Shown: piece after piece, positions 36,588 to 64,000 of the stretch | How positions within the stretch are numbered: the stretch's first letter is position 1 | Layout of the letters: the number at the start of each line of letters is the position of its first letter | DNA from: Gammaproteobacteria bacterium | GTDB taxonomy: Bacteria > Pseudomonadota > Gammaproteobacteria > Pseudomonadales > Azotimanducaceae | Direction of reading: 5' to 3' | Assembly (NCBI GenBank): GCA_009841615.1 | Contig: VXLL01000027.1 | Location: 1,223 to 65,222, forward strand | Length of the DNA: 64,000 nt | Program-made: the position numbers and the translations under genes | The notes under the pieces: model-generated | Told to the model about the DNA's origin: nothing | The model's input: only the letters and a program-made list of their open reading frames with translations | Databases searched by the model: none

Positions 36588-36714
36588 CTAAGTATCAATG
36601 AACTGTTGTCTAAGCACACGTGTTGTTCAGGAGTGTAATGCTCTACAATATTTAAAAAATATTTGACCAGTGGTCTGCTCGATTCTCGCGGTCAATGATC
36701 AAAGGAACATTCAC

Positions 36715-37299
36715 TTGACAGTAAAGGAAGACACAGACGCCGTATTGGTGAAGCGAGTACAAGCAGGTGACAACCGGGCGTTCGATTTGCTGTTCCATCG
36801 ATATAAGCACCGGTTACGGTCAGCCGTGAGTCGAATTTTAGATAACCGCGAAGATGTGGATGACGTGGTGCAAGATGCTTTCGTCAAAGCTTATCGGGCA
36901 CTACCGAAATTTCGTGGGGACAGTCAATTTTTTACTTGGCTGTATCGCATCGCTACCAACACTGCAAAGAACCACCTAGTGGCTAAGGCACGCAAGCATA
37001 CTAATACCGATATCGACATCTACGAAGAGACTTCTAGCAACGAATATACCCATCTCCAAGAAAATGAAAATCCAGAAAATCTGTTAGAGTCTCGAGAGTT
37101 GGAACTTTTGATTAAGGAGACTGTCCAAAACCTTGAACCAGAACTACGGAGTGCTATTACGTTACGAGAACATGCGGGTCTGAGCTACGAACAGATCGCT
37201 CAGATCATGGATTGTCCGGTGGGAACGGTTCGTTCACGAATATTTCGGGCACGTGCATCAGTGTCTGAGAAAATTCGCGAGCGTGAAAACAGGTTCTAA
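36715..37299 (+). CDS. rpoE: ECF sigma factor RpoE (sigma-24)
   Basis: VKRVQAGDNRAFDLL..., FRGDSQFFTWLYRIATNTAKNHLVA, and LREHAGLSYEQIAQIMDCPVGTVRSRIFRAR. TTG at 36715 is preceded by AAGGA and aligns with the E. coli N-terminus. The longer ORF starts at GTG 36670. Confidence 0.9.
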   Translation: MTVKEDTDAVLVKRVQAGDNRAFDLLFHRYKHRLRSAVSRILDNREDVDDVVQDAFVKAYRALPKFRGDSQFFTWLYRIATNTAKNHLVAKARKHTNTDIDIYEETSSNEYTHLQENENPENLLESRELELLIKETVQNLEPELRSAITLREHAGLSYEQIAQIMDCPVGTVRSRIFRARASVSEKIRERENRF

Positions 37300-37429
37300 C
37301 AAGTAATGAATAATTAATTAACCTTGTGAAAGGAAGGAGAATATCGTAAAGCACAATGATTTTTCGTATAAAATTGAGTGTTAACTCTTGGGTTTCCCGA
37401 GAGGTCATTCCAACAAGCGTTGAGAAATC

Positions 37430-38044
37430 ATGATGTCTGATTCGTTGAAAACGTCCCTTTCCGCATTTGTCGATGGAGAAGCTTCGACAGACGAATCCTC
37501 GCAAGTTTTACAACAGTTAGCCGAGGACGAAGAATTGCGAGCAGAGTGGAAAAATTACCACTCGATCGCTGCTGTATTAAGGAATGAAGGCATCTCTAAT
37601 GTGCAAGTGCCGACGGATTGGGATGCCCTTGCTGACGCACTTCCGGTTAATGGTGATGTTCTACCGTTCCGATCGCGAAATAGGGTCAAGAATATGTTGG
37701 TCCATGGAGGTATCGGCGCCGGTCTTGCGGCGTGTATCATGGTCGCGATGTTTTTCCTGTTTACAGACAATCCTTCCGAGTCTGCCTCAAACTTAGCCAA
37801 AACCAACGCGACGGAGGACAGCGTCTCTAATGCACTCACGTCTCAAGACTTCGCTCAGCAACCACGTTCCTTTGACAGTCCGTTTGAAATGAGTGTATCG
37901 GTGGTACCTCCAGAAATTCTTGCAGACCTTCACCAGATGATGCTGGATGCTTTGCTCGCTCACGACATCAGCCGTTCCGGCATAGAACAATCATTGCTAC
38001 ATGATGCGAACATAATCTCAAGGAACGTATCCCAAGAGTTATGA
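37430..38044 (+). CDS. rseA: Anti-sigma-E factor RseA
   Basis: The N-terminus LSAFVDGEAS...WKNYHSIAAVLR matches the RseA_N pattern. It has a central TM segment (GIGAGLAACIMVAMFFLF) and sits directly after rpoE. Confidence 0.8.
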   Translation: MMSDSLKTSLSAFVDGEASTDESSQVLQQLAEDEELRAEWKNYHSIAAVLRNEGISNVQVPTDWDALADALPVNGDVLPFRSRNRVKNMLVHGGIGAGLAACIMVAMFFLFTDNPSESASNLAKTNATEDSVSNALTSQDFAQQPRSFDSPFEMSVSVVPPEILADLHQMMLDALLAHDISRSGIEQSLLHDANIISRNVSQEL

Positions 38045-39039
38045 CCGACACAAAGTACCGTTTCACACACCCCATTTATTACTGCTTCGTCATTGTGGTA
38101 TGTGTGCTAGGAGTACACGGGGAAGAGCGGACCGCAACGGAATGGGTTGAGGCCATGCACAAAGCTCAATCGGAGATGGGCTTTGAGGGAACTTTAGAAA
38201 TTTGGAACGGTATCGCGTTAACCACGATTGAGTATTGTCAATATGTCATTGATGGCAAGGTTCAGGTCAAAGCCAAGCCAAGTGAGGGACCTCAACGCGA
38301 GATTAATAGAACTGACAAAGAGCTATCGATCAGTTTTGCCGCAGATGACGAATTTCATGAATTCGGTAATGAACTGAGCGGCGATTCACTTTCTCGACTG
38401 TTTCCTCCTGATATTGCGACACTCAGCGAGTCCTATGACATCGCCAAAATGCCGGACCAAGAAATTGCAGATCGCGACGCAGTGGGAATTTCAATCATGC
38501 CCAAGCAAGCAGATCGACACGGCTTCAAGATTTGGATTGACAAATCTACTGCGTTACTACTCCGCATGGAAATGTGCGACTGTGACGACGCGCGACGAAT
38601 ACTCAGTATGTTGGTATTTACCGAAATAAAGGTTTTGGAAGGTTCTGGGCCGGTACTCTCGGTTGCTGAAGAGACGAAAGAATCGGATCTGTCCGTAAGT
38701 ATCGTAAATGAGGACGAATCGGATTCATCCGGCGTTCAAGCTGATTGGGAAGCGAGCTACATGCCCGAAGGTTTTAAGCTGTCAGGCATAAAGTCTAAGG
38801 ATGGCGTGTTAATGCATCGCACGTATTCGGACGGGATGAATGCGGTCACTGTAGAGATTCGCCCAATGTCGACGAAATTGAATGGCGAACTTCATATAGA
38901 AAAAATTGTTGGTCCTACAATAATTGCTACCCGTAATGCGTTAGACGCCCGCGGACGACCCCAGATAATTACTGTGGTCGGTGATTTACCTCGTAGAACG
39001 ATTTGGAAAATCTCCGAAGGGGTCAAGTTCGAACGATAA
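38041..39039 (+). CDS. rseB: Sigma-E regulatory protein RseB/MucB
   Basis: Its position (start overlaps the rseA stop), size (332 aa), signal sequence and MucB-like features (AVGISIMPKQADRHGFKIWIDKSTALLLRME) all fit RseB. Confidence 0.7.
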   Translation: MTDTKYRFTHPIYYCFVIVVCVLGVHGEERTATEWVEAMHKAQSEMGFEGTLEIWNGIALTTIEYCQYVIDGKVQVKAKPSEGPQREINRTDKELSISFAADDEFHEFGNELSGDSLSRLFPPDIATLSESYDIAKMPDQEIADRDAVGISIMPKQADRHGFKIWIDKSTALLLRMEMCDCDDARRILSMLVFTEIKVLEGSGPVLSVAEETKESDLSVSIVNEDESDSSGVQADWEASYMPEGFKLSGIKSKDGVLMHRTYSDGMNAVTVEIRPMSTKLNGELHIEKIVGPTIIATRNALDARGRPQIITVVGDLPRRTIWKISEGVKFER

Positions 39040-44872: not shown

Positions 44873-46690
44873 ATGAGTGACTCGCTCGCGTCAAAAATTT
44901 CACGGACTCGAAATTTTTCGATTATCGCCCACATTGATCATGGAAAATCGACATTAGCCGATCGATTTATTCAACACTGTGAAGCCCTTCCAGAAAGAGA
45001 AATGGCTGATCAAGTTCTGGATTCAATGGAACTAGAGCGCGAACGGGGCATCACAATTAAGTCACAGAGCGTCGCGCTGAGATATCGGGCACGAGATGGA
45101 GAACTTTATTATCTAAATTTCATTGATACGCCTGGCCATGTGGATTTCAGCTACGAAGTTTCGCGTTCTCTCGCCGCATGTGAAGGTGCTCTGCTAATTG
45201 TTGACGCGACGCAGGGTGTCGAAGCCCAATCTGTGGCAAATTGCTATGCGGCTATCGAGATGGCTGTAGAAATTTTGCCAGTACTCAACAAGATGGACTT
45301 ACCACAAGCTGACGCAGAGCGGACCATCGCCGAAATCGAATCGTTGATCGGATTACTTACTGATGATGTAGTAGAAATCAGTGCGAAGATAGGCACAGGG
45401 ATCGAAGAATTGCTGGAAGCGATCGTCACCAAGATTCCTCCGCCCAAAATAGACGGATTTGATACGTTTCGCGCGTTGATCATTGACTCTTGGTTCGACA
45501 GGTACGTTGGTGTGGTCTCGTTGGTACGAGTTTGGGGCGGTAGCTTACAGCGTCGTGATCGTATCGTTTCGCATAGTGTCGGAAAAGATCACGTTGTCGA
45601 AGAACTCGGAGTGTTCACCCCGCGTCGCGAAAAACGAGAGCAGTTGCATGCGGGCGACGTTGGATATGTAAGTGCTGGGATCAAGGAAATCAACGGTGCC
45701 CCCGTCGGAGACAGTTTGATGCATGCGCGCAACCCGATTGAACCGTTACCAGGTTTTGAGCGTGCCAAACCGCAGGTCTATGCAGGGCTGTACCCCAGCG
45801 ATGCGGACGATTATGTCGCCCTCGGAGATGCTTTGGAGAAACTCGGTTTAAATGACGCGGCACTGCACTTTGAAGTCGAGAACTCCGACGCCTTGGGCTT
45901 TGGATATCGTTGTGGTTTTTTGGGAATGCTACACATGGAAATCGTGCAGGAGAGATTAGAACGAGAATATCAGCTCGATCTTGTAGTTACTGCCCCCTCC
46001 GTAGTGTATGAAGTGTTATTGCGAAATCTAGAAACTGTTTTGATTCATAACCCGTCGCATTTGGACGAGCTGAAGGACATCGCTGAGATTCGGGAACCCG
46101 TAGCTTCAGTCAATATCTTGGTGCCGCAATCGTATATCGGAAACGTCATTGAACTATGCGTGGAACGTCGCGGTTCCCAAAAGAGTATGCAGGTCACCCA
46201 CACTCAAGTCTCACTCGTCTACGACATTCCAATGAGCGAAGTTGTCGTGGACTTCTTTGATAGGCTCAAGTCGGCGAGCCGCGGTTTCGCAAGTTTGGAC
46301 TATAGCTTTTCTCGTTTTGAACCAGCACCCTTGGTCCGGCTTGATATTTTGATTAATGAGGAACGGGTCGATAGTCTTGCTGTGATAGTGCACAAAGAAG
46401 CGGCGATGTCCCGAGGACGGGCGGTAACTTCGAAATTAAAGGAAGTTATTCCAAGGCAAATGTTCGATGTTGCGATTCAAGCAGCGGTCGGTCGAAAAGT
46501 TCTTGCCCGTACCACAGTGAAAGCTCTACGTAAAAATGTCACTGCAAAATGCTATGGCGGCGACGTAACGCGAAAACGCAAGTTATTGGAAAAACAGAAA
46601 GCCGGAAAAAAACGCATGAAACAAATTGGACGCGTCGAAGTGCCTCAGCAGGCATTCATGGCTGCATTGACCATCGATCGCGCAAAGTAA
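44873..46690 (+). CDS. lepA: Translation elongation factor 4 (LepA)
   Basis: [33 protein letters not shown], and the LepA-specific C-terminus ...[37 protein letters not shown]. Confidence 0.97.
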
Positions 46691-52390: not shown

Positions 52391-52642
52391 TCATGACGTA
52401 TCTTGCACCCCCTTGCGTATAACATATTTATGTTCATTGTTAGCAACTTCCGCGAGTTCCAACGTATGCTTCATGAAGCGACAAAAATTTCTAAAATCTC
52501 TATCCGTACTCGGATCAGTGGCTAGCACGAATAAACGCTCGCCGTGATGCATTGTCCGAACTTTATTCCTGACAATCATGAGAGGTTCTGGACAAACGAG
52601 CCCCCGTGTATCAACGAAGTGTTCGTACTCAGGAGAAGACAT
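52391..52642 (-). CDS. tusA: Sulfurtransferase TusA
   Basis: DTRGLVCPEPLMIVRNKVRTM..GERLFVLATDPSTDRDFRNFCRFMKH...YVIRKG is collinear with E. coli TusA. Met at 52642 is preferred over 52699. Confidence 0.85.
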   Translation of the reverse strand: MSSPEYEHFVDTRGLVCPEPLMIVRNKVRTMHHGERLFVLATDPSTDRDFRNFCRFMKHTLELAEVANNEHKYVIRKGVQDTS

Positions 52643-52819
52643 GCTAATGTATTTGCTAGTGTTGGTGATTTGAATTCGTTGAAGTCTGGTCACGCTCAAA
52701 CTATTGCTGGTCGCGTTGTTGATTATGCTTGTTTGAGATCGGAGTCATCAGATTTCGCATCCCTCGTTGTAGTGTAAATTTAGATAATTGGTTCATCGAA
52801 ATTGAGAGAATTTCAAACT

Positions 52820-54085
52820 ATGAGAATCGGATTGGGTACGCTCGCATTGCTTTGTTCGATTACTTTCTTTAGCAACTCCCATGAAGCTTCTGTGCCTTCG
52901 TTGGGTACGCCGACGTTAGACAACGCTGATGAAGAGATGCTCCTTGAGCCAAGTAAATTGCGTGCGCGCATCGAAGCAGGCGAAGCAGAGGAGGTGTTGA
53001 CACTCGCCACGGAAGTCATCTCAGAAATCGAAGAGAATCGTACAAGGTATGACGAAGCGTTGGTTAAACCACTCATCGTGTTCGGTGACGCGAGCCGAGA
53101 GTTGGGGGAATACATCGACGCGATTGAAGCTTATGAACGTGCCCGACAGATTTCGAGACTAACAAATGGACTAAATTCGATTGAGCAAGTCGAAGCAGTA
53201 CACAGAGAGGCTGAAACCTACTTTGAGCTTGGACACATCGGGGACGCAAACGATAGCTATGAGTACATCTTCTCGATTTACAACCAGCAATTCGAACCGT
53301 TTTCCGTGGACTTGTTGCCAACCATCTTCATGCTTGCAGATTGGTACGTGTTGATTTACAACGTTTTTGCAGCTCGCGGTTTGTATGAATATGCCACCGA
53401 AATTGTGGATCACCATTTAGAACGGACTAGTCCTGAAAACATTCGAGCACTACAGGGACTAGCAGACACCTATCGTCTAGAACGTTTTCGACCTCTAAGT
53501 GCTCTGGGTCAAATCCAAGCCCGCATACCTGTGTTGTATTGGGCGGATGAGACGCCGTTCAGATATTTTGCGAAAGTAAACGACTTTGAAACCGGTGAGG
53601 ATGCTCTAGTCGAGCTCGTCAAAATCGAGCTCGAACGATCTGAGAGCACGCCAGAGTCCGTTGCGCGGGCAAAACTCCAGCTCGCCGATTGGTTTACACT
53701 GTTTGAACAGAACGAGCGCGCAGTGGTCATTTACCAAGACATATTAGCAACGTTTGAGGACACCGAAACAGAGTTTTTTACAAGTGAATTTAGGGAAGCG
53801 GTACCACTATTTCTTCCTTTGTCCACAAGTCCTGATCCCCAACCACTGCGATTGGAGTCTCCTCCCGCGACCGGAGAAGTTGGATTTACGGTTGATGTCG
53901 ACGAAACCGGCCGTGTTATTCAAGTACAATTAGACTTTGCGCAACCGCAAGGCGATTTCGTCGAGGAATTCGAGAAGTCTTTGAAGAATGCGATCTATCG
54001 GCCTCGCTTTGAAGATGGGAAGCCGATGCCGCGTACGAATGTCAAGGTGCATCACAGGTATATCTTCTTTCCCAAAGCTGAATAG
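52820..54085 (+). CDS. Secreted alpha-helical-repeat (TPR-like) protein ending in a TonB_C domain; first gene of the 52.8-64 kb operon
   Basis: Signal peptide MRIGLGTLALLCSITFFSNSHEA. The helical region has TPR-like spacing. The C-terminal TonB_C-like unit is GEVGFTVDVDETGRVIQVQLDFAQP...FEKSLKNAIYRPRFEDGKP. Confidence 0.6.
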   Translation: MRIGLGTLALLCSITFFSNSHEASVPSLGTPTLDNADEEMLLEPSKLRARIEAGEAEEVLTLATEVISEIEENRTRYDEALVKPLIVFGDASRELGEYIDAIEAYERARQISRLTNGLNSIEQVEAVHREAETYFELGHIGDANDSYEYIFSIYNQQFEPFSVDLLPTIFMLADWYVLIYNVFAARGLYEYATEIVDHHLERTSPENIRALQGLADTYRLERFRPLSALGQIQARIPVLYWADETPFRYFAKVNDFETGEDALVELVKIELERSESTPESVARAKLQLADWFTLFEQNERAVVIYQDILATFEDTETEFFTSEFREAVPLFLPLSTSPDPQPLRLESPPATGEVGFTVDVDETGRVIQVQLDFAQPQGDFVEEFEKSLKNAIYRPRFEDGKPMPRTNVKVHHRYIFFPKAE

Positions 54086-54205
54086 GGCGAACGCGAAAGG
54101 CGATTGGACAAAAAAATAAAATATTTACAGTACGTAGAACTTGGAACTTTGTGGAACACGCAATTGTCTACTATGAGGTACCACCAAGAGCGAGGAGGTC
54201 AGAAC

Positions 54206-55345
54206 ATGGACAAACGAATTGACACTCTACTGGAGTATGGAAGCTTAAAGTTCATAAGTTCCTTTTTTCGCCGATTTTTGGAATTCGTTTTAGGGGCTAA
54301 GGTTGTCGTTTTAGTAATCGCTATTTTTGGGCTTAGTGGGTGCATGTCTAGTGTGCCTTCCACTTTTCCTGACATCCAATTACCGTCTCCACAGTCCTCC
54401 ACTGGTAGTCCAACTTCCTCCTCCTCATCGGGACAACCGTCGGGGAACCCGATGCCCCAACCAAATAGTGGTTCGCAATCGTCGTTGCCGACACCATCTT
54501 TACCAACTCCTGGTTCTCCGAGTTCTGGAACCCCCTCGTTACCGAGACCGCCTTCCCCCATGCCTTCGCCAGATTCCTCCGACGGTACTCCATCAACACC
54601 GTCATTGCCGTCGCCCGAAAGTCAGGGCAGCCCCAATTCCGGAGAGTCTAATGATGGAACGACGACACCAGAATCGAGCTCGGGCAACGAAGGACAACAA
54701 GATGGCCAAGACGGAACAATGGGCGATAACATCGAACTACCTCCAGGTGACCTTCAATTTCCTGTGGGCGACCCCAATGGACAACAAGGTGGCGAACAAT
54801 CCAATGATGGTGGCGGAGTGATGATGCCAGAAGATGAAGGTGAGGGAGCTGGAGGTTGGGAAACCAGTAACCAGTTAGAGCCGCAACCCGGCGATTCCGA
54901 AGAAGGAGGTAACACCGACGAAGAGGAAGATGAAAGTGCAGTTGCCAGTGGGTCTGGTGAAGATGCAATGCAAGAAGTTCTCGGGGATCTTGACGGCGAG
55001 ATTATGAATGAACGAAACGCAGCGAACACTAGGGCTAATGATGAGATCGCTGAAGCCGGTTCTTTTGAAACTGAAACTGACGAGCCGGAATCGGGAGTTC
55101 TGGACGGAGATACCGATGGCGGTGATGAGACTGCGGACGAAGAACAACAAGCCGGGACGGGAGCAGGAGAACAAGACGAACCATTACTTCCCGAATCTCG
55201 ACAAGGTGTTGCCGACACACCCGATGCAACAGATAAGAGTGTAGTGGCGCGCCAGCTCAAAGAAGCAGCGTTAGCGGAGGAAGACCCTGAGCTGAAAAAG
55301 AAACTTTGGGAAGAGTATGAAAACTATGTGGACGGATTGAAATGA
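54206..55345 (+). CDS. Lipoprotein with a Pro/Ser-rich linker and a long Asp/Glu/Gly-rich disordered region
   Basis: ATG 54206 is preceded by GAGGAGG. The lipobox is FGLSGC. There is roughly 100 aa of S/P-rich sequence, then roughly 230 aa rich in D/E/G. The stop overlaps the next start (ATGA). Confidence 0.6.
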   Translation: MDKRIDTLLEYGSLKFISSFFRRFLEFVLGAKVVVLVIAIFGLSGCMSSVPSTFPDIQLPSPQSSTGSPTSSSSSGQPSGNPMPQPNSGSQSSLPTPSLPTPGSPSSGTPSLPRPPSPMPSPDSSDGTPSTPSLPSPESQGSPNSGESNDGTTTPESSSGNEGQQDGQDGTMGDNIELPPGDLQFPVGDPNGQQGGEQSNDGGGVMMPEDEGEGAGGWETSNQLEPQPGDSEEGGNTDEEEDESAVASGSGEDAMQEVLGDLDGEIMNERNAANTRANDEIAEAGSFETETDEPESGVLDGDTDGGDETADEEQQAGTGAGEQDEPLLPESRQGVADTPDATDKSVVARQLKEAALAEEDPELKKKLWEEYENYVDGLK

Positions 55346-56589
55346 AATTTCTGCGCATTTCTCTTCTTTCGCTTGTGGTGCTGAGCATGGTCGGGTGCTC
55401 GACAGTCATCAAGCGTCGAGTTGACACAACACCACCGAAACAATCTACTAGAGCCATTCCGGAAGAACAATTGTTGGACGTCGGTATCGTAGTGTTCGAT
55501 TCCAACGTCCCGGAGCTCTACGATGACATTATTGAGGCAAACATTACTCCTGAAGTCCGGCGAGCTGAGGCGAATTGGATCGTCAATTACGCCAAAGAGT
55601 ATCTCCAAGCCACCGGTAATTGGGGTGCCGTGCGCGCGATTCCCAAACCTAGCTTGGCAATCGATGTTCACATTACGGGAGACATTCTACATTCCGACGG
55701 CGAGCTTCAGGTGTTAAAGATCAAAGCTGCTGATTCCCGTGGAGTCGTTTGGTTTGATGACATTTTTGAGACTCGCGCCAGTAAATATTCGTACGATTCA
55801 GACGTGCCCCGTGACATTGATCCCTTTCAGACCAACTATCGAGAACTGTCTGACAGACTGCTCGAGTACCAAGAGTCCTTAACCCCAGAAGAAATTCTTG
55901 AAATTCGAAGTACCACTTTGGTGCGGTACGGCAAAGCAGTAGTTCCAGAAGCATTTGGCGACTATGTCGTAAAAGAAAGAAACGGTCGATTCCGATTGAA
56001 CAGATTGCCGACTCCGGATGATCCAACTATGTCCAACGTTCGACAGTTACTTGAAAGGGAACTTGTCATTATTGACACTTTGGACGAGAGTTTTGATCGG
56101 TTTGCAAACGACATGGACGAACCTTACTGGTTCTGGCGCGAAGGATCTTATCCGTTAGCGATTGCCTTTCGTGAGGAGCGTCAGCGTTCAAAAACTCGTA
56201 TAGCTTCTGGGATTATTCTCGCGATCGTCGGCGCTTACTTTCAACGACAAACCGGTGGGTTTCGAGAGATTGGCGGTTACACGGCTGTTATCGGTGGCGG
56301 GACAGAAATTCTCGGAGGCGTTGGAGACCGTGCTAATGCAAAAAATCATCAAGAAATGTTGCACGAAATCGGTGTAAGCGCGTCGCAACAGATTGGTCCA
56401 ATAACAATTGAGCTAGAAAATGCGACGATTTCGTTACAAGGAACGTTTGAAGAGCAGTACCAAAAAGCCATTGAGTACATTCGCGAGACTTACCAGAAAG
56501 AGCTAGGCAACATCCTAGACCCCGATAGTTCTACGGATGAATCAACTGGAGACGAAACCACTGACGAATTCATCCAGGACCCCGAATGA
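55342..56589 (+). CDS. Predicted lipoprotein, function unknown
   Basis: N-terminus MKFLRISLLSLVVLSMVGCS has a lipobox-like motif. 415 aa, with a Gly-rich hydrophobic segment near residue 300 (IASGIILAIVGAYF...GGYTAVIGGGTEILGGVG). It is translationally coupled to its neighbours. Confidence 0.6.
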   Translation: MKFLRISLLSLVVLSMVGCSTVIKRRVDTTPPKQSTRAIPEEQLLDVGIVVFDSNVPELYDDIIEANITPEVRRAEANWIVNYAKEYLQATGNWGAVRAIPKPSLAIDVHITGDILHSDGELQVLKIKAADSRGVVWFDDIFETRASKYSYDSDVPRDIDPFQTNYRELSDRLLEYQESLTPEEILEIRSTTLVRYGKAVVPEAFGDYVVKERNGRFRLNRLPTPDDPTMSNVRQLLERELVIIDTLDESFDRFANDMDEPYWFWREGSYPLAIAFREERQRSKTRIASGIILAIVGAYFQRQTGGFREIGGYTAVIGGGTEILGGVGDRANAKNHQEMLHEIGVSASQQIGPITIELENATISLQGTFEEQYQKAIEYIRETYQKELGNILDPDSSTDESTGDETTDEFIQDPE

Positions 56590-58090
56590 CGAACACCAAC
56601 CGGTGGTTCTGCAACCGGTTCAACCTAAGCTCGCGGGTAGTACAAGTACCAAGCGCTTTCGCTTTGTAAAACCAAACCGCAGCCAGCTTAATATGCTGGC
56701 TGTGCTTACTCTACTAGGCATCGCTATCGCCTTTTGGTTTTTAGCACCAAGAGATTGGATTACACCAAACAACGATAGCTTGTCGACCGCGAACAATGGA
56801 AGTCTTCGCGACAGGAGTAATCAAACAACTGGCGAACCGACCACTCCTTTTAAAGATGCGCAACAAGAACGCGCGCGTGAAGCTGCACAGACCGTCTTCG
56901 ATGAGTTTGTCCAGTATCAAGACGAAATAGAGAGAAATCAATATGGGACAGAGGAGCACTCAGAGCGGGAGAGCGCAATCTACGAACGCGCGAACAAAGC
57001 CGATTTACTGTTTTCTGAACGACGGTTTGATGAAGCCATTAGTGAGTATGAACAAGCATTACAAGATATAAAGCAACTGCTTGACGACATGAACACTGAA
57101 TTTAACCATTGGGTTGAACAAGGTACAGAAGCTCTGCAGGATCGAGATTTCGAGATTTCATTGGAAGCGTGGTCGCGCGCTCAGGCGATTAAACCACTGG
57201 ATCAAGACGTGCAAGCTAAATTAGCTCGGGTGCAACTATTACCCAAAGTTAACGAACTCATCCGCGAGAGTGAACGGGCAAGGATAAAGGAAGACTGGGT
57301 TCAAGCGCTTGAGCATCTGAATGAAGTCACGAAACTCGATCCCCTTACACTTGGGATAACAGACCTGAGCGAACAAATCTTAGAACGCATTAAATCTCAA
57401 GATCTCAAAGATGCACTCACTGACGGTCATGAGCAATTAGCCGGCAGCAACTTCGATTCTGCGGAACAAATATTCGAAGAAATTCTCGTGGATTATCCCG
57501 AAAATACCGCGGCCCAAACCGGTTTGCAACAAGTTGAAAGAGCACGACTAGCCGCGAAAATAGAAGCCTTAAAAGTTGAGGCACGAGAAAAAGAAGACCA
57601 ACTAGATATGCGCGGTGCGCTGAAAATTTACGATGAAGCTTTAGCTCTCGATGACTCGTTGCAATTTGCTGTTGAGGGTAGAGAGAGAGTGTTTGAAATA
57701 ATCTCTGTCGTGAACGACATGAATGACACATTGCAGGATCCACATTCCTTATCTGCGGATGACGCTTACGAAGAAGCGAAAGAAACCTTAGAAACTGCAC
57801 AGAGTCATCGTGGTCATAGCGGAGAATATGATAAGTTGTTACAGAGCTTCGCTGACTTGGTGAGCTATGCAGGGACACTTCTTCCGGTAGTATTGATCTC
57901 AGATGAGATGACTGAAGTAACTCTTACTACCAGGCAGCGTATCGGATCTTTTAAGCGACATGAGTTGATGCTACGACCGGGCCGTTACACGCTACACGGG
58001 ACCCGGGACGGGTGGGTCGACATTCGTAAACCTTTCATCGTTGAACAAGACATGGATCCGGTGTCGATCTTTTGTGAAGAACAAATCTAA
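56537..58090 (+). CDS. Bitopic membrane protein with TPR-like/coiled-coil repeats and a PEGA-like C-terminal beta domain
   Basis: TM anchor LNMLAVLTLLGIAIAFWFLAP. Repeated helical units follow (AISEYEQALQDIKQL, LEAWSRAQAIKPLDQDVQAKLA, ALEHLNEVTKLDP, AEQIFEEILVDYPENTAAQTGL). The C-terminus is ...MLRPGRYTLHGTRDGWVDIRKPFIV. The start is uncertain: ATG 56537 overlaps the upstream gene by 53 nt, and GTG 56603 is the alternative. Confidence 0.55.
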   Translation: MNQLETKPLTNSSRTPNDEHQPVVLQPVQPKLAGSTSTKRFRFVKPNRSQLNMLAVLTLLGIAIAFWFLAPRDWITPNNDSLSTANNGSLRDRSNQTTGEPTTPFKDAQQERAREAAQTVFDEFVQYQDEIERNQYGTEEHSERESAIYERANKADLLFSERRFDEAISEYEQALQDIKQLLDDMNTEFNHWVEQGTEALQDRDFEISLEAWSRAQAIKPLDQDVQAKLARVQLLPKVNELIRESERARIKEDWVQALEHLNEVTKLDPLTLGITDLSEQILERIKSQDLKDALTDGHEQLAGSNFDSAEQIFEEILVDYPENTAAQTGLQQVERARLAAKIEALKVEAREKEDQLDMRGALKIYDEALALDDSLQFAVEGRERVFEIISVVNDMNDTLQDPHSLSADDAYEEAKETLETAQSHRGHSGEYDKLLQSFADLVSYAGTLLPVVLISDEMTEVTLTTRQRIGSFKRHELMLRPGRYTLHGTRDGWVDIRKPFIVEQDMDPVSIFCEEQI

Positions 58091-58103
58091 AGGCATTTAG
58101 ACT

Positions 58104-60170
58104 ATGACTGATGGCGGTGTCCAAAACACTTTACTACAACCTGATGTCTTTGAACCTTCCCGATCTCGTCCCCCCCGTCGTACTCGAATAGTCTCTTGGG
58201 TTCAGGTAATCGCCGCGGTCCTCACGCTCTTTGTAGTTTTCGCCCTTTGGTTTGTTCTTACCGCCAAGTCGGTAAAACTCGAACCCAATGTTGTAGACGC
58301 AGAAATCAAAATTCTCGACGGATTACGGTTGAATACAGGAGAACGTTACTTACTCCGGCCAGGTGAGTACCGAGTAAGCGGTCAAGCGTCCGGTTATTAC
58401 GAAGTAGATGAAATCATTGAAGTCGGGCGACAAAGCCAGCAAACAATTCCCATAAATTTTGAGCGTTTACCGGGTTTGGTACACATCACTGCATCGCCAG
58501 TCGATGCTACAGTCTCGTTGAACGGAGCTCCACTAGGACAGGCACCGATTTCGCACGATGTCCCTGCGGGACCAGCGACGCTTTTATTTTCAGCACCGCG
58601 ATATCAAAGTGACACTATCACTTTCGATGTGGAAGGTATGGCTCGCGAACAGAGCCAACACCTCGACTTAAAACCAAATTGGGGCGATATCACAATCCCC
58701 ACTCAACCTGAAGGGGCGACCATCCTAGTCGACGGTAAAGACTCTGGTTTCACGACACCCGGTCCTGCAGAAATATTGGCTGGAGAGCACGAAATATCAG
58801 TCAAACTCCAAGGTTACGCGCTGTGGACGGATCTAATTTTCGTGACAGCCGGCGAACAGCGTACATTGGACCCTGTCCAGCTACACCCGGTGCAAGGAAA
58901 AATTTCGATTGTTTCAACGCCTCCTTCTGCGAGTGTCACGATCAATGGTAAATTTCAAGGTACGACTCCACTACCTGATGTACAAGTGGAACCAAATGCA
59001 GACTTACAAGTCGAAGTGTTACTTGCAGGTTATCACGTCGATAAACGAACTATTTCCTTGAACCCAGGACAAGAAACTAATCTGACGATCAAATTGGAAG
59101 AAGAGACTGGTGAAGTAGTAATGATTACAGATCCTGAAGACGTCGAGTTTTATATAGATGGTAAGCGCGTCCAACTACCAGAGGATCGAAAGATTACACT
59201 ACACGCTATCAATCATCATTTTGAAGTTAAAAAGGAAGGTTATGCTGGATGGGCAGGGGAAATTTCAGTGCAACCAGGACAAGCTCAAGTAAAGAGAATT
59301 CGTCTACTTACCGAAGCCGAAGCTGAAATTAAATATTTGGAACAGAACCGTACCACCGTTGACGGACAGGAACTCGTGCTCTTGCAACCCACGCCGATCC
59401 GAATGGGGGCTTCGAGATCACAACCTGGAAGACGAGCAAATGAGCCCTTTCGTACTACGAATCTCAATCGAATGTACTATCTGGGCAAGTATGAAGTCAC
59501 CAATGAAGACTTTCGCAAATTTATTCCTGTACATGACTCAGAAGACTACCACGGCCACAATTTGAACAAAGACCAACAACCTGTCGTAAACGTCACTTGG
59601 AATGAGGCAGCATTGTACTGTAATTACTTATCAGAGAAACAGGGGTTAGAACCGTTTTACGAAGTGCGCGGTGCTAAGGTCGTTGGTTATAGACCTGATT
59701 CCATTGGGTATCGACTACCGTCGGAGGCAGAGTGGAGCTGGGCAGCACGGCATATGGAAGGTCAAGCCGAACTGATGCACTTCCCTTGGGGTACGGATTT
59801 TCCGCCTCCAGAAGATCGCGTGGGCAACTTTGCTGACGCAGCCGCACAGCATGTAGTGGGCCGGATCATCTTTGAATACAACGACAATTTCACCGTGTCC
59901 GCGGAAGTAGGTTCATTTCGTCCAAATTCTAAGGGTATTCACGACCTAGGTGGTAACGTTGCAGAATGGGTACATGATTTTTATGACATTCCGGCAGTAA
60001 ACAGCACCGTCGACAACTTAGGACCGAGCCAAGGACAATATCGAGTGATGCGAGGTTCAAGTTACTTAGATGGCACCATCACTCCCTTACGATTGTCATA
60101 TCGCAATTATGGGACCGACGGAAGTGCATATGTGGGGTTCAGAATTGCTCGTTACGCGAAAAAGGAGTAG
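58104..60170 (+). CDS. Bitopic membrane protein with multiple PEGA-like domains and a C-terminal FGE-sulfatase (SUMF1-like) domain lacking the catalytic Cys pair
   Basis: TM anchor VSWVQVIAAVLTLFVVFALWFVLTA. PEGA-like repeats are present (HITASPVDATVSLNGAPLGQAP...; ITIPTQPEGATILVDGKDSGFTTP...AGEHEISVKLQGY; ISIVSTPPSASVTINGKFQGTTP...; VMITDPEDVEFYIDGKRV...). FGE-domain motifs are VTWNEAALYCNYLSEKQG, YRLPSEAEWSWAAR, GNVAEWVHDFY, RVMRGSSY and GFRIARY. Confidence 0.7.
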   Translation: MTDGGVQNTLLQPDVFEPSRSRPPRRTRIVSWVQVIAAVLTLFVVFALWFVLTAKSVKLEPNVVDAEIKILDGLRLNTGERYLLRPGEYRVSGQASGYYEVDEIIEVGRQSQQTIPINFERLPGLVHITASPVDATVSLNGAPLGQAPISHDVPAGPATLLFSAPRYQSDTITFDVEGMAREQSQHLDLKPNWGDITIPTQPEGATILVDGKDSGFTTPGPAEILAGEHEISVKLQGYALWTDLIFVTAGEQRTLDPVQLHPVQGKISIVSTPPSASVTINGKFQGTTPLPDVQVEPNADLQVEVLLAGYHVDKRTISLNPGQETNLTIKLEEETGEVVMITDPEDVEFYIDGKRVQLPEDRKITLHAINHHFEVKKEGYAGWAGEISVQPGQAQVKRIRLLTEAEAEIKYLEQNRTTVDGQELVLLQPTPIRMGASRSQPGRRANEPFRTTNLNRMYYLGKYEVTNEDFRKFIPVHDSEDYHGHNLNKDQQPVVNVTWNEAALYCNYLSEKQGLEPFYEVRGAKVVGYRPDSIGYRLPSEAEWSWAARHMEGQAELMHFPWGTDFPPPEDRVGNFADAAAQHVVGRIIFEYNDNFTVSAEVGSFRPNSKGIHDLGGNVAEWVHDFYDIPAVNSTVDNLGPSQGQYRVMRGSSYLDGTITPLRLSYRNYGTDGSAYVGFRIARYAKKE

Positions 60171-60171
60171 G

Positions 60172-60576
60172 GTGCAAGCTACACACTCCAAGCCCGCCAA
60201 CACGCCTACATTGATACTTAGGATAGCAATGATCCTCGCTGTTCTAGTGTTTGGCTATCACTGTATTGGACAAGAAGATAACGTTGAAGAATCTGAGACG
60301 ACCGAACCGGCTGATAGTGTCTCGGAAGAAACTCCCGAAGACACAGCAGCAGAGGAATCCGAAAACGACTTAGATGATTCCGAAAACAGCACATCCCAGA
60401 GTTCTGAAGAGGACTCAAGCTCTACCCAAGACATCAATTCAGAAGAAGAGACGACTAACGAAGATACCCCCAGCACTGAAGACACGGAAGAGTCGGTTGA
60501 CGCTGACTATGAAGATTTCGTTCCCACGGAAAATTTATCGGAAGACGTAGATATACCTTTTCCCGTTGATATTTGA
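60172..60576 (+). CDS. Small secreted, extremely acidic (D/E/S/T-rich) protein
   Basis: The hydrophobic signal-like segment ILRIAMILAVLVFGYHCIGQ is followed by about 100 aa dominated by E, D, S and T. The start is GTG 60172 (directly after the upstream stop) or ATG 60229. The longer ORF from 60070 overlaps the upstream gene. Confidence 0.5.
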   Translation: MQATHSKPANTPTLILRIAMILAVLVFGYHCIGQEDNVEESETTEPADSVSEETPEDTAAEESENDLDDSENSTSQSSEEDSSSTQDINSEEETTNEDTPSTEDTEESVDADYEDFVPTENLSEDVDIPFPVDI

Positions 60577-60591
60577 TACTAAGGACCTAGT

Positions 60592-61395
60592 TTGACTAAA
60601 CGCTTTACCACCAACTTCTTTACGCAACTGTTAGCACTGGTTGTGGCAATATTGCTCGTACATACGATGTACGAAACTTTGATTCGGCCTAAAGCTAACG
60701 CAATTCTTGAAGAGCGCAAGGAAGCCATTGAGAATGAAGTAGAGGGATACGAGATTAAGCGGTCAGTGTACGTTACTCTCAAAGATTATGAGCAAGAAAT
60801 TTGTTTCATTCTCATGTTCTGGGCGTTTGCCATCATGATTACGAAGGGGATTAGCGTACGGGGGCAACATCGTCTCACCAAGCAGGAATTGGTGAAGATC
60901 GTGGAGGGCACAAGCGTGTTGCCAGAAGATGCTCGCGTGTATATGCGATCAATTCAGTCGCTACCGCAAAAAGCCCAAGATTCGTTACTCCCTCGAGCAG
61001 CCATGACCGCGTTGCAGCGTTTTGAATCTACTCAAGAGATTCAACATGCTTCCGAAGCGGTGCGGACGGTATGCGAAGGCGAGGCAGATAGATTAGATAG
61101 CGAGCTCGCCATGATTCGGTACATTTCTTGGGCTATTCCGTCCATTGGGTTCATCGGAACCGTACGTGGTATCGGAGGAGCACTCGGTCTCGCTCATGAA
61201 GTGTTCCAACAAGGAACGATTACAGGAGTTACCGAAAACTTGGGTATTGCGTTCAATTCAACACTTGTCGCCCTAGTGATCAGTATTGTGATTATGTTCT
61301 TCGTGCATCAACTTCAACGATACCAAGAAGAGATGGTAATCGACATCGAGTCATGGTGCGACGACAACTTGCTTCGACATCTACAGGTACGCTAA
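60592..61395 (+). CDS. MotA/TolQ/ExbB-family proton-channel protein
   Basis: Two N-terminal TM helices, a cytoplasmic helical insert, then the family signature region IRYISWAIPSIGFIGTVRGIGGALG...GVTENLGIAFNSTLVALVISIVIMFFVHQL. Confidence 0.75.
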   Translation: MTKRFTTNFFTQLLALVVAILLVHTMYETLIRPKANAILEERKEAIENEVEGYEIKRSVYVTLKDYEQEICFILMFWAFAIMITKGISVRGQHRLTKQELVKIVEGTSVLPEDARVYMRSIQSLPQKAQDSLLPRAAMTALQRFESTQEIQHASEAVRTVCEGEADRLDSELAMIRYISWAIPSIGFIGTVRGIGGALGLAHEVFQQGTITGVTENLGIAFNSTLVALVISIVIMFFVHQLQRYQEEMVIDIESWCDDNLLRHLQVR

Positions 61396-61396
61396 C

Positions 61397-62677
61397 ATGT
61401 GGATTCTAGAACTCGACGATACAGAAATCCGCCTATGTAAGGACGGCGAAGTCGTCATTACAGAACCCGGCATTGCTTGGGCAGAAGTTAAAGAACTAAA
61501 GTTCGGTGAGGCGGCATTGAGGGTTGCTAAGCTTTATCCCGCCCGAGTTCATACGCAGTATTGGAATCTAATGGATCAAAGTCACGTTGAACCCAAAGGA
61601 TTTGCTGTTGAGACTCAGGCCGACCTGGTCTATCAACAATTGCTTCACATCAAAGCACAAGCGAAGCTTGGGGACAAGGATGAAGTCTTAATCGTAGTAC
61701 CAAGCGACCGTACTGAGCAACAATTAAGGCTACTGTATGGAATAATATTGAAAGCAGGCTATAACGTTGTTGATTTTGTTGACTTGGGAGTCGCGGGCGC
61801 ACTTGCATCTGAAGGTCATGGTGCCCTTGCGTATGTCAGCGTCGGCATGCAACGTACCGTAATCACGCATCTAAAAGCTTCTGACAGAGTTGTGAGAGAA
61901 AAGGTGTCCGTAACACCGCAACTAGGTGTCTTACCGTTATGCAACACATGGATTCGTATGGTAGCGGAAAAGTTTCTAGCGAGTTCTCGATTTGACCCAC
62001 GTAAATTCGCGGAAACCGAGCAGCAAATTTTCGATCAAATTCTAGTGTTTGTTCAATCTCCTAAAAACAATACTGCCATCGAAACTGAGTACCGTGGCTT
62101 TACGCGTCAAGTAGAGATTTCTAAAGCTGAAGTTATAGAGGTCGCGAAAGACCGATATGCATCCGTGCTCAGTCGCATCAACACGGAAGAAGACCTTGTG
62201 TTATCGAACACAACGCATACGCTACCTGGACTGACCGAAGCGCTGACTCAGAACGGACGCAAGTATTTTGTCAGTACGTTTCAAAGTGTGGTCGACGAGC
62301 TTACGGCTTCCTTAGGTGATGATTTAGCTACTGGTCAGTGCACGTTACATACTAGCTTAACCAAGCAAGGGACAAGCGCCCCATTTGTCGAAAAACACAA
62401 CGATACACTCGCTGAGACTCCAGTGCATCCTACACATATACTGCACCAAGCAACTGCTTATCCGATTGGGTCAGAGTTTACCGTTAATAGTGGTGAGTTA
62501 GACGAATCTCTGCTGTTCACGCTGGAACACCGTTCTCGAGGTACGGCGTTAAAGATTGGTACTTCGGCACCGATCTCGGTAAATGGCGCGAGAGTACATT
62601 CCGAACAAATTGTTCAACCGGGTGATCGTATTTCTGTGCTTGATCGCAACTATGAATTGATCATGGTTCAAGGTTGA
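61397..62677 (+). CDS. Soluble protein with a degenerate Hsp70/actin-fold-like N-terminal domain and an FHA-like C-terminal domain
   Basis: VLIVVPSDRTEQQLRLLYGIILKAGYNVVDFVDLGVAGALA parallels the Hsp70 sequence VITVPAYFND.QRQATKDAG.IAGL.V.RIINEPTAAALA. The phosphate-binding motifs are not conserved (WILELDDTEIRL, YVSVGMQRTVIT). The C-terminus ...LKIGTSAPISVNGARVHSEQIVQPGDRISVLDRNYELIMV is FHA-like. Confidence 0.45.
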   Translation: MWILELDDTEIRLCKDGEVVITEPGIAWAEVKELKFGEAALRVAKLYPARVHTQYWNLMDQSHVEPKGFAVETQADLVYQQLLHIKAQAKLGDKDEVLIVVPSDRTEQQLRLLYGIILKAGYNVVDFVDLGVAGALASEGHGALAYVSVGMQRTVITHLKASDRVVREKVSVTPQLGVLPLCNTWIRMVAEKFLASSRFDPRKFAETEQQIFDQILVFVQSPKNNTAIETEYRGFTRQVEISKAEVIEVAKDRYASVLSRINTEEDLVLSNTTHTLPGLTEALTQNGRKYFVSTFQSVVDELTASLGDDLATGQCTLHTSLTKQGTSAPFVEKHNDTLAETPVHPTHILHQATAYPIGSEFTVNSGELDESLLFTLEHRSRGTALKIGTSAPISVNGARVHSEQIVQPGDRISVLDRNYELIMVQG

Positions 62678-62681
62678 AGAA

Positions 62682-63773
62682 GTGAAACGTCCTCGCAAAC
62701 GTCAGATCAGCGTTTTTCTGTTGTCGTTTCTCGACATCATGGCGGGCGGCTTCGGCGCGGTGGTGCTCATATTTTTGATCATAGACCACAACACAATGGA
62801 AGTAATCGAATCAGCGAATCAAGATCAGCTTGCTGAGGTTCGCTTGTTGGACATGAGGAAAGAAGAGGGCGAAAAGGATTTAGCTGTGCTACGTGAAAAA
62901 GTCGCCCAGTTGAAGCTTGAGATTGCGGATGCAAGAGAAAAGATCGAGAACATCCAACTAGAGGTGGATGAAAAAGAAGAAGAAGTTAAAGAAGTCGAAC
63001 GCCAGGCCCTAGATCAGAGCGAAACTGAAAAGAAATTACAGAGCGAGATCGAAACAAAAGAAGAGGAACTTGAAGATATCAAACAGAATCTCGACGATGT
63101 GCGACCAGATGTTTTGGAAATCGCTGGCGCAGGCGATCGACAATACCTCACAGGTCTATTCTTGGGCGGGAACCGCATTCTGATAGCAGTGGACAATTCT
63201 GCCAGTATGCTGCACAACAATATCGTTAATGTCGCAATACTACGAAACAGGGAAAAAGAAGCACAATTACAGTCGAAGAAATGGATCCGAGCTATTGATT
63301 CCGTTGAATGGTTTGTAGCCAAGGCACCTATTTCAAGTCAGTTGCAGATCGCGACTTTTAACACTGAAGCAAAGTTGATCGTCGACGATGGTGATTGGCA
63401 TGATGCGACAGATGCACAAGCATTGCAAGACGCGATCAAGGTCTTACGCGAGACACCACCTGCTCATGGTACGGATCTCAAAGGTTTGTTCGAACTGATT
63501 GCGAAAATGAGTCCTATACCTGACAACGTGTTTCTTATTACCGACGGGTTTCCCACAACAGATGACAGTAATGCCAGTAGACGCCGAACGACGATCGATG
63601 GACAAGCTCGGTTCGAATTGTTTCGGCGAGCGATGAGGGAACTTCCGTCAGGGATTACAGTAAATTCGATCCTACTTCCCTTTGAGGGAGATCCGTTGGC
63701 GGCGGGTGCCTATTGGACTCTGTCGCACAATACTGGAGGGACCTTCATGACTCCGTCGAAGGACTGGCCATGA
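62682..63773 (+). CDS. ExbD/TolR-like TM anchor (conserved Asp) fused to a coiled coil and a vWA domain with an intact MIDAS motif
   Basis: The N-terminus KRQISVFLLSFLDIMAGGFGAVVLIFLII resembles the ExbD/TolR pattern (I..TPLIDV..VLLIFF) and includes an Asp (codon at 62733-62735). A coiled coil of roughly 100 aa follows. The vWA motifs are ILIAVDNSASM (DxSxS at 63192-63206), AHGTDL and VFLITDGFPT. Confidence 0.65.
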   Translation: MKRPRKRQISVFLLSFLDIMAGGFGAVVLIFLIIDHNTMEVIESANQDQLAEVRLLDMRKEEGEKDLAVLREKVAQLKLEIADAREKIENIQLEVDEKEEEVKEVERQALDQSETEKKLQSEIETKEEELEDIKQNLDDVRPDVLEIAGAGDRQYLTGLFLGGNRILIAVDNSASMLHNNIVNVAILRNREKEAQLQSKKWIRAIDSVEWFVAKAPISSQLQIATFNTEAKLIVDDGDWHDATDAQALQDAIKVLRETPPAHGTDLKGLFELIAKMSPIPDNVFLITDGFPTTDDSNASRRRTTIDGQARFELFRRAMRELPSGITVNSILLPFEGDPLAAGAYWTLSHNTGGTFMTPSKDWP

Positions 63774-64000
63774 GACGAGCGCGCGAAGGAAGCGAAATTA
63801 GCTTAGCTTTTCTTGACGTGATCTGTTGCGGATTTGGGGCAATCATTCTATTACTAATGATCACCAAGCAGAATTTGCCAACCATACTTGAACCCTCCCT
63901 AGAAGACATTGTGGCTGAGCTCGCAAAGCGGCAGGAGGCGATTAATGAAATTTTGGGTGAAACCGAAAGACTCGAACGCACCAAAGTCGAGACCGAAGCC
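63770..64000 (+). CDS. Second ExbD/TolR-like TM-anchor protein (paralog of 62682-63773), 3'-truncated by the window edge
   Basis: This ORF is not in the ORF track because it is open at the window end. ATG 63770 overlaps the upstream stop (ATGA). The translation is MRRAREGSEISLAFLDVICCGFGAIILLLMITKQ...AELAKRQEAINEILGETERLERTKVETEA. It shows the same Asp-containing TM motif (Asp codon 63815-63817) followed by a coiled coil. Confidence 0.6.
   Translation, partial: MRRAREGSEISLAFLDVICCGFGAIILLLMITKQNLPTILEPSLEDIVAELAKRQEAINEILGETERLERTKVETEA

Follow-up and report, generated by a model that had tools for sequence, protein, structure and literature searches.

A TolQ-like channel with vWA-bearing partners in a conserved envelope operon: a candidate ion-driven machine of marine Gammaproteobacteria

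The locus and its gene layout

A stretch of 64,000 nt from a Gammaproteobacteria bacterium (contig VXLL01000027.1), hereafter called the window at its full length, carries ten closely spaced open reading frames (ORFs) on the plus strand (52802–64000), the last of which is cut by the window end. With the letters A to L given to the operon genes in order, we propose that the locus holds the first ten genes (A–J) of a conserved twelve-gene operon for an envelope-spanning machine built on a TolQ/ExbB-type ion-driven motor, a reading to which we assign a probability of roughly 0.5. Motors of this kind (MotA/ExbB/TolQ, with a 5:2 stoichiometry) drive flagella, gliding, the import of nutrients, the upkeep of the outer membrane, type IX secretion and one phage defence system, and the way in which their small dimer converts ion flow to work is still debated. 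The genes within the window are the following:

A, 52802–54085, plus strand: secreted TPR protein with a TonB C-terminal domain at its end
B, 54104–55345, plus strand: lipoprotein with a disordered linker and a conserved C-terminal module
C, 55342–56589, plus strand: lipoprotein with an N-terminal alpha/beta domain and two helices
D, 56537–58090, plus strand: bitopic inner-membrane protein with periplasmic TPR repeats
E, 58104–60170, plus strand: bitopic inner-membrane protein with four PEGA repeats and an FGE-sulfatase-fold domain
F, 60229–60576, plus strand: small secreted acidic protein with an invariant C-terminal 20-mer
G, 60592–61395, plus strand: MotA/TolQ/ExbB-family channel subunit
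H, 61397–62677, plus strand: cytoplasmic protein with an Hsp70-NBD (nucleotide-binding domain)/actin-like fold, a linker and an FHA domain
I, 62682–63773, plus strand: protein with an Asp-bearing transmembrane (TM) helix, a coiled coil and a vWA domain
J, 63770–64000, plus strand: paralog of I, 77 codons of which lie inside the window

ATGA overlaps at the B/C (55342/55345) and I/J (63770/63773) junctions were read directly in the sequence, and the remaining junctions are gaps of 1–58 nt or overlaps (1 nt between G and H, 4 nt between H and I); the genes G, H, I and J follow each other with 1–4 nt or an ATGA overlap. The start of F was adopted from the gene call on an identical metagenome contig of 6.6 kb (L001), which ends inside I, while the likely true start of A is the ATG at 52820. 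Upstream of A lie a divergent tusA gene (52391–52642, minus strand; PF01206, 2.4e-18) and a FAD oxidoreductase gene, which argues that A opens a new unit. The divergence of tusA and A leaves about 180 nt of common upstream region for the operon promoter. A promoter and terminator scan of the window was uninformative, since it found 13 terminator-like sites vs 12.4 expected from shuffling and none beyond expectation.

An earlier reading of the window, made from its letters and ORFs (the sequence-only reading), had reported these ten packed ORFs with their two ATGA overlaps, and both the ORF layout and our direct reading confirm it. It had also expected the unit to continue beyond the window end, which is what relatives show: a full-length J is followed there by two lipoprotein genes, K and L. 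Its ten-gene operon thus holds for the genes in the window but not for the size of the unit. We placed the end of the operon from the closest relative (L003, in which I is 81% identical) and from more than 70 other loci and, since K and L lie downstream of J in relatives, the operon, as judged from these loci, has twelve genes and is truncated by the window.

Conservation and hosts

Using an alignment of I, we scanned a genome collection holding one genome per species (GTDB) and fetched the best 80 loci, while relatives of I were confirmed at no fewer than 591 of the 600 candidate sites (at least 591). All window products were then compared with the fetched loci by tblastn. C-D-E-G-H-I-J is collinear in nearly all of them, with A and B usually upstream, and the complete order C-D-E-F-G-H-I-J-K-L recurs, collinear, in about 80 loci. 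As these loci are independent, such a recurrence means that the arrangement is not due to chance. G is syntenic with I/J in 79 of 82 loci, and J is followed by K (a lipoprotein of ~216–230 aa) in 72 of the 82 and by L (another lipoprotein, of ~225–230 aa) in 70.

Distant homologs of H led to a metagenome-assembled genome (MAG) of Vicinamibacteria (Acidobacteriota), in which the core from B to J is present (locus L083). A is more variable: many loci have it beside the cluster, L083 has none nearby and L084 carries it on the opposite strand. The latter locus and L085 represent a variant that keeps B–F, H, I, J and K, with an A-like gene on the other strand; there, the gene at the position of D bears an N-terminal Ser/Thr kinase domain (L084: 4748–7132; L085: 2228–4612). 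The Asp-bearing helix is retained in both I and J of L084, despite the lack of a local G.

The hosts are chiefly Halieaceae, Luminiphilus, Congregibacter, Pseudohongiellaceae, Porticoccaceae and gammaproteobacterial MAGs, and cultured ones include Congregibacter variabilis IMCC43200, Kineobactrum sediminis, Pseudohalioglobus sediminis and strain HTCC2080. A library-wide profile search returned 452 protein clusters (50% identity) at E ≤ 1e-30, and the I family is of modest size and mostly environmental; no plasmid-borne homologs of I were found.

The motor core: a TolQ-like channel and two vWA partners

G matches MotA_ExbB (PF01618) with 53.1 bits for a cut-off of 22.9 (E 3.5e-14), and its closest solved and NCBIfam relatives are TolQ. 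When compared with E. coli TolQ (8odt), for which the pore-threonine positions used were T145 and T178 in the last two TM helices, T190 (nt 61159–61161) and T224 (nt 61261–61263) of G align with the threonines of GTVWGI and IATAIGL, respectively. Neither these two threonines nor P183 vary among 32 homologs, those of Acidobacteriota included. Its sequence thereby marks G as a channel subunit of the MotA/TolQ/ExbB family that keeps both pore threonines, and we presume it to be pentameric.

The protein I is composed of a basic N-terminus, a single TM helix, a coiled coil of ~110 residues and a vWA domain (VWA_2: 1.5e-7, 32.5 bits vs a cut-off of 27). Within the TM helix, the motif SFLD(V/I)M..GFGA includes an invariant Asp (Asp18, nt 62733–62735), while the MIDAS reads D171-x-S173-x-S175 (nt 63192–63206). 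D18, D171, S173, S175 and D288 are invariant in 22 homologs, in which T264 is conserved at 90% or more. The length of I varies little (360–376 aa across 81 loci), a constancy consistent with a ruler-like span.

The part of J that lies in the window shares the SFLDV..GFGA motif with the helix of I. In relatives, the full-length J (329–349 aa) has a coiled coil and a vWA-type domain; the homolog in L003 (329 aa) is 90% identical to the window J over its first 77 aa. D16, D158, S160 and S162 of J are invariant in 28 homologs, and I and J align with a probability of 99.3% in hhalign (E 4e-20), in an alignment spanning DxSxS, even though VWA is not called in J by Pfam itself. Both N-termini are rich in R/K, so that the positive-inside rule would put the coiled coils and the vWA domains in the periplasm.

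Searches for conventional partners of the channel were negative: PF02472 (ExbD/TolR) matches none of the twelve products, nor the isolated N-termini of I and J, and Pfam yields no ExbD/TolR or MotB gene and no OmpA-type domain among these products. The periplasmic alpha/beta domain of ExbD/TolR is absent from I and J, which have a coiled coil and a vWA domain in its place.

For this core, the sequence-only reading was largely right. It had assigned G to the MotA/ExbB family (which the Pfam score and the invariant pore threonines corroborate), seen in I and J two paralogs with an Asp-containing TM helix and a coiled coil (in agreement with the hhalign result and with the invariance of the Asp in both) and described the partners of the channel as non-canonical, as the combination of Asp helix, coiled coil and vWA in the absence of an ExbD/TolR or MotB gene attests. 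Its vWA domain is well supported in I, but its restriction to I does not hold, since J is also of the vWA type and has an invariant DxSxS.

The accessory proteins

A matches TPR_12 (4.6e-9) in Pfam, while its single sequence reaches TonB_C at 0.0058, which is under the cut-off. Searched against the PDB, a profile of 23 homologs retrieves the C-terminal domain of Vibrio TonB2 (2k9k, 1.2e-12) and E. coli TonB (about 1e-9), and the TonB C-terminal domain spans aa ~338–427 (nt ~53813–54082). At the N-terminus, a signal-peptide-like hydrophobic stretch of 15 residues is unconserved among the 23 homologs, and a TonB-type TM anchor (SHLS motif) is not found in A. Being devoid of the membrane anchor of the TonB/TolA type, A does not qualify as a TonB-like energised transducer.

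B has no Pfam match. It consists of a lipobox (...LSGC), a long variable linker rich in Pro/Ser and in Asp/Glu, and a C-terminal module of ~40 aa (nt ~55223–55342), which reads DDDVVARQLREAAM..DPELREKLWEEYRKYK in the window. The lipobox and the C-terminal DDDVVARQLREAAMxExDPELREKLWEEYRKYK are kept in all 18 loci inspected (18/18), including L083 of Acidobacteriota. F has a signal peptide, a variable acidic linker and a C-terminal 20-mer ...FVPTENLSEDVDIPFPVDI-COOH (nt ~60514–60573). In 72 of 74 loci, G is directly preceded by a small ORF with a signal peptide that ends in [FY]P[VTI][DN]I* (its end 3–130 nt ahead of G or overlapping it by 4 nt), and the tails listed share ...ISEDxxVxFPVDI. The consensus of the 20-mer, [FY]x[PA][ST]ExISEDxxVxFPVDI-COOH, is almost invariant, whereas the preceding linker is hypervariable, and L083 and L086 carry the motif too. 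The C-terminal peptide of F has the look of a short linear motif meant for another component of the machine.

D and E are both bitopic. D consists of a short cytoplasmic tail, one TM helix, periplasmic TPR repeats (TPR_2 9.9e-7; 25 of 29 homologs match TPR families) and, at its C-terminus, a conserved beta module. E has a cytoplasmic tail, one TM helix, four stretches of PEGA (5.8e-38) and an FGE-sulfatase domain (PF03781, 6.2e-39; aa 422–683, nt ~59367–60152). When E is aligned to human FGE (1y1e), the segment CHRSYC, which holds the catalytic pair C336/C341, is replaced by a Cys-free stretch. Since E also matches PorK (9mzu, 1.6e-11) and GldK (TIGR03525, 1.2e-26, with 93.9 bits vs a cut-off of 350), it counts as a structural, non-FGE member of the fold. 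Its homolog in L083 (4067–6397, 776 aa) is extended at the N-terminus by a stretch resembling FHA (…VSVNGAPV…LHDGDVV). Just before their TM helix, the cytoplasmic tails of D and E share the motif I-x-P-x-x-[FYA]-x-P-[LTS] (window 56537–56700 and 58104–58260), a possible docking site for H.

The window H has no Pfam match. Its AlphaFold 2 (AF2) model (pLDDT 89.7, pTM 0.73) shows an NBD-like fold over aa 1–~320, for which Foldseek retrieves DnaK, BiP and Ssb from the PDB at E ~1e-16 (NBD-only targets: TMt 0.63–0.70, rmsd 4.2–4.9 Å). The FHA domain lies at aa ~345–426 (nt ~62429–62674): the profile of H matches the PDB FHA domains of YukB, KIF13B and Ki-67 at 3e-4 to 7e-3, and PF00498 is precomputed on distant H homologs.

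Among the lipoproteins, C has neither a Pfam nor a PDB sequence match, with a mean column identity of 58% in 25 homologs. Its AF2 model (pLDDT 81) features an N-terminal alpha/beta domain and two helices of ~50–75 residues (a long helical hairpin), the N-domain having weak Foldseek matches to TolB (4r40, E 3.5e-3) and LptE (8h1s, E 1.1e-2). An LptE-like identity was also considered for K and rejected, as the Pfam match in L003 (0.004) concerns only 1 of 27 homologs and no PDB relative was found; L likewise has no PDB relative. The comparison of the C and K profiles is marginal (64%, mostly signal peptide and lipobox).

Several of the domains described here had been recognised in the sequence-only reading, namely a secreted TPR-like protein ending in TonB_C for A (TPR_12 at 4.6e-9 and, through the profile, TonB_C at 1.2e-12), PEGA repeats with an FGE-sulfatase domain in a bitopic E, and an Hsp70-like domain with an FHA-like C-terminus for H, to which the AF2/Foldseek fold and the profile matches correspond. 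Three descriptions have to be amended: B is indeed a lipoprotein with disordered regions and F a small acidic secreted protein, but the former is more than disordered and the latter more than acidic, given the conserved C-terminal module and the invariant 20-mer, while for D the bitopic topology and the TPR-like repeats hold, but the PEGA-like end is not confirmed (PEGA in 0 of 29 homologs).

Comparison with characterised systems

The closest published counterpart of the core is a family of TM-tethered vWA proteins described by genomics and AlphaFold 3 (AF3) in June 2025 (PMC12204202; Mol Biol Evol 2025;42:msaf138). These proteins have a TolR/ExbD-like helix with a conserved Asp and are encoded as heterologous vWA pairs beside a tolQ homolog, without tolR/exbD; in the AF3 models, the paired Asp are inside the Thr ring of a TolQ-like pentamer. 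The exemplar comes from Idiomarina loihiensis; Proteobacteria and Verrucomicrobia are the reported hosts of the family, for which no function or phenotype is known. G, I and J fit the description of this architecture (a pair of Asp helix-vWA proteins next to a tolQ homolog that keeps its pore threonines). In contrast, the accessory genes do not appear in the searchable text, where “PEGA” and “sulfatase” have 0 occurrences and where the sole match to “FHA” is FhaC. The sequence-only reading knew of no stator family whose small subunit carries vWA/MIDAS at its end; this view is outdated, such a pairing having been predicted in this paper. Literature searches on combinations of PEGA, FGE-sulfatase, FHA, VWA and MotA returned no description of the full operon.

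Searches with Pfam, NCBIfam and PADLOC bear out the earlier view that the cluster matches none of Tol-Pal, Ton and Agl-Glt; nor does it match the type IX secretion system (T9SS), Bat or Zorya. The outcomes that the sequence-only reading named as refuting did not occur: G scores as MotA_ExbB, the genes are kept together in relatives and the cluster fits none of the characterised systems. For Zorya, membership in this or another defence system was rejected, PADLOC yielding only a 17-bit ZorA match and coiled-coil matches.

Tol-Pal shares with the operon a TolQ-like channel, a C-terminal domain of the TonB/TolA type, a TPR protein, outer-membrane lipoproteins and a trans-envelope logic, to which the weak resemblance of the C N-domain to that of TolB can be added. 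However, the operon lacks a TolR domain, a TolA anchored by a TM helix, the beta-propeller of TolB and a Pal of the OmpA type. Indeed, TolR, TolB and Pal have no Pfam/NCBIfam matches among the twelve products, and all Tol-Pal equivalogs are far under their cut-offs (e.g., tolQ, TIGR02796: 35.3 bits vs 221). Moreover, in L086 (14846–21281) the full A–L operon is followed by an M48 peptidase gene, ruvCAB and, 5 kb downstream of the operon, a canonical tolQ-tolR-tolA; as the two coexist, A–L is no Tol replacement. Regarding Ton, A has the C-terminal domain of TonB without the N-terminal anchor that couples it to ExbB.

The Agl-Glt machinery of Myxococcus uses the same domain vocabulary and has a TolQ-like motor with two different axle subunits (PMC11761067). 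It includes FHA domains at the cytoplasmic face of the motor, TonB-CTD (C-terminal domain)-like domains, several TPR proteins, lipoproteins, a small disordered protein (GltF) that bridges partners via its C-terminus, and a vWA protein, CglB (PMC11761067). Yet, its axle is made of ordinary TolR-like subunits (AglQ/AglS), with the vWA in an outer-membrane adhesin, whereas here the vWA is fused to the axle, and its domains are spread over different polypeptides. Neither a beta-barrel domain of the GltA/B/H type nor PF02472 is found in the twelve products, and no NCBIfam Gld/Tgl equivalog is above its cut-off.

Proposed machine and alternative explanations

In the machine that we propose, five copies of G would surround an I/J heterodimer, following the 5:2 architecture of the G family, and the flow of protons (or Na+) via the Asp/Thr site would turn the pentamer and the axle relative to each other. 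With a coiled coil of ~15 nm and a vWA head of ~4 nm, both of which the basic N-termini would place in the periplasm, the axle could reach the outer-membrane side. There, the vWA metal sites would most likely capture an acidic ligand near the outer membrane, for which the best candidates may be the C-terminal peptide of F and the acidic C-terminal module of B, both carried on long flexible linkers. F and B belong to the phylum-spanning core, unlike A, K and L, so that their partners are more likely to be I/J, D, E and C than A. D and E could form an inner-membrane-anchored periplasmic scaffold, analogous to the T9SS ring protein PorK/GldK, whereas A and the lipoproteins C, K and L would constitute the outer-membrane-proximal end. 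On the cytoplasmic side, H may act as a platform or regulator (pseudo-ATPase fold and FHA) linking the machine to Ser/Thr phosphorylation, probably docked on the motif of the D/E tails and/or on G. Our best guess for the output, ahead of flagellar rotation or the import of nutrients, would be a force transduction like that of Tol-Pal or Agl-Glt, by which lipoprotein complexes of the outer membrane are tethered or remodelled with an input of energy.

A more specific version of this mechanism can be put forward tentatively, though we would bet against it in its details: a heterodimeric coiled-coil axle with two metal-dependent vWA “hands” that cyclically catch and pull the flexibly tethered C-terminal peptides of F and B, thereby doing work on the C/K/L complex, under a gating by the pseudo-chaperone H (Hsp70-like/FHA) via Ser/Thr phosphorylation. 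If true, such a catch-and-pull axle would be a third mode of force transmission for 5:2 motors, besides the side-arm coupling of TonB/TolA and the stators of the MotB/GldM type.

Several points weigh against the proposed machine. First, the 5:2 assembly and the geometry of an Asp in a Thr ring would follow from family membership and from the AF3 models of others. Second, a profile of 20 I/J N-termini matches no ExbD/TolR chain in the PDB and, with the Pfam search on these N-termini being blank too, homology of the I/J helix to ExbD/TolR was rejected as a candidate, its likeness appearing at the motif level alone. Third, the L084/L085 lineage has no MotA_ExbB gene within 10 kb, though I and J are present. 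Fourth, the twelve products include no beta-barrel of the outer membrane, no domain that binds peptidoglycan and no secreted substrate, and hence no identifiable load for the motor. In H, the glycine-rich phosphate loops of Hsp70 (DxG/DxGGGT) are not recognisable in the consensus, in which D8 is nearly invariant. Finally, the assignment of F and B as vWA ligands is conjecture, and there is no phenotype for any member of the family.

The kinase domain of L084/L085 is also part of what speaks for an alternative in which the complex would be an outside-in sensor: the vWA heads would bind a periplasmic or outer-membrane ligand, G/I/J would report the state of the envelope or the proton-motive force, and the signal would reach the cytoplasm by way of H (FHA) and Ser/Thr phosphorylation. 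Ligand reception is a classic role of vWA domains, the gene of the FHA-bearing H stands between motor genes, the variant lineage has a Hanks-type kinase fused to its D-position gene, E of L083 has an FHA-like segment at its N-terminus, and short conserved motifs occur in the D and E tails on the cytoplasmic side. On the other hand, the characterised complexes of the MotA/ExbB family all use ion flow to do mechanical work, the cluster has no conserved transcription factor or response regulator, the four conserved lipoproteins and the TonB_C protein point to a mechanical trans-envelope link, and FHA domains can serve as structural docking modules, as they do in the Agl-Glt motor (PMC11761067). 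Altogether, we regard a sensor as unlikely.

We give even less credit to a secretion or surface-motility apparatus akin to the T9SS or to gliding, with G/I/J as an analogue of GldL/GldM and E as an analogue of the GldK/PorK ring. The resemblance to GldLM-GldKN (PorLM-PorKN) lies in a 5:2-type motor whose long dimeric periplasmic shaft heads towards a non-catalytic FGE-sulfatase-fold protein, E being, like PorK/GldK, without the catalytic cysteines of FGE and matching both of them. Nevertheless, its GldK score is far from the cut-off, E is bitopic in the inner membrane rather than an outer-membrane lipoprotein, G belongs to PF01618 rather than to GldL, and the shaft is made of a coiled coil and a vWA domain, not of GldM domains. 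Furthermore, GldL, GldM and GldN have no NCBIfam matches, neither SprA nor a T9SS C-terminal-domain substrate is found with Pfam/NCBIfam, and most of the hosts are marine plankton of the groups Halieaceae, Luminiphilus and Porticoccaceae.

It is just as improbable that I and J are not motor subunits at all but anchored vWA proteins like BatA/BatB, with G working with a TolR/ExbD encoded elsewhere: the TM helix indeed has no statistically significant similarity to ExbD/TolR, I and J are kept without a local G in L084/L085, and Bat (aerotolerance) operons likewise join membrane-anchored vWA and TPR proteins in an envelope operon, but an invariant Asp in a TM helix, kept in both paralogs across phyla and even in L084, would be costly unless functional, G-H-I-J are translationally coupled with G and I/J in synteny almost everywhere, the Bat hallmarks MoxR (AAA+) and DUF58 are absent from A–L, and Bat systems have, to our knowledge, neither a MotA/ExbB channel nor an Asp-bearing helix motif. 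The AF3 models published for the same architecture also put the helices inside the pentamer (PMC12204202).

Coming back to the ion-driven machine, the operon is real, strongly conserved and outside every characterised machine. The architecture of its G/I/J core is already in print (2025, in silico), while the twelve-gene surroundings and the conserved peptide modules of F and B appear to be undescribed. The system offers a variant axle (a rigid coiled coil with two bulky ligand-binding heads) together with an unusually complete set of co-transcribed candidate partners (scaffold, tethered peptides, lipoproteins and cytoplasmic FHA platform), so that the role of the axle could be studied within one complete set of parts. 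Members of the family occur widely in abundant marine Gammaproteobacteria, with Acidobacteriota as an outlying group, and, as cultured hosts exist, the predictions are directly testable.

Other features of the window

About 14 kb upstream of the operon, an rseA/rseB pair (anti-sigma-E and MucB/RseB) provides an ordinary envelope-stress context; a 209-aa ORF before rseA/rseB (36670–37299, within the stretch 36670–39039 that also holds the pair) may be rpoE, and lepA, identified from its translation alone, lies further downstream of the pair (44873–46690). A tmRNA gene is found at 24968–25325 (206 bits), its 3' end sharing 22 nt with the mechanical ORF of a minus-strand protein of 1154 aa (25304–28768). 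The latter protein has no significant Pfam domain, and its gene adjoins that of a TonB-dependent receptor (28848–30944, minus strand).

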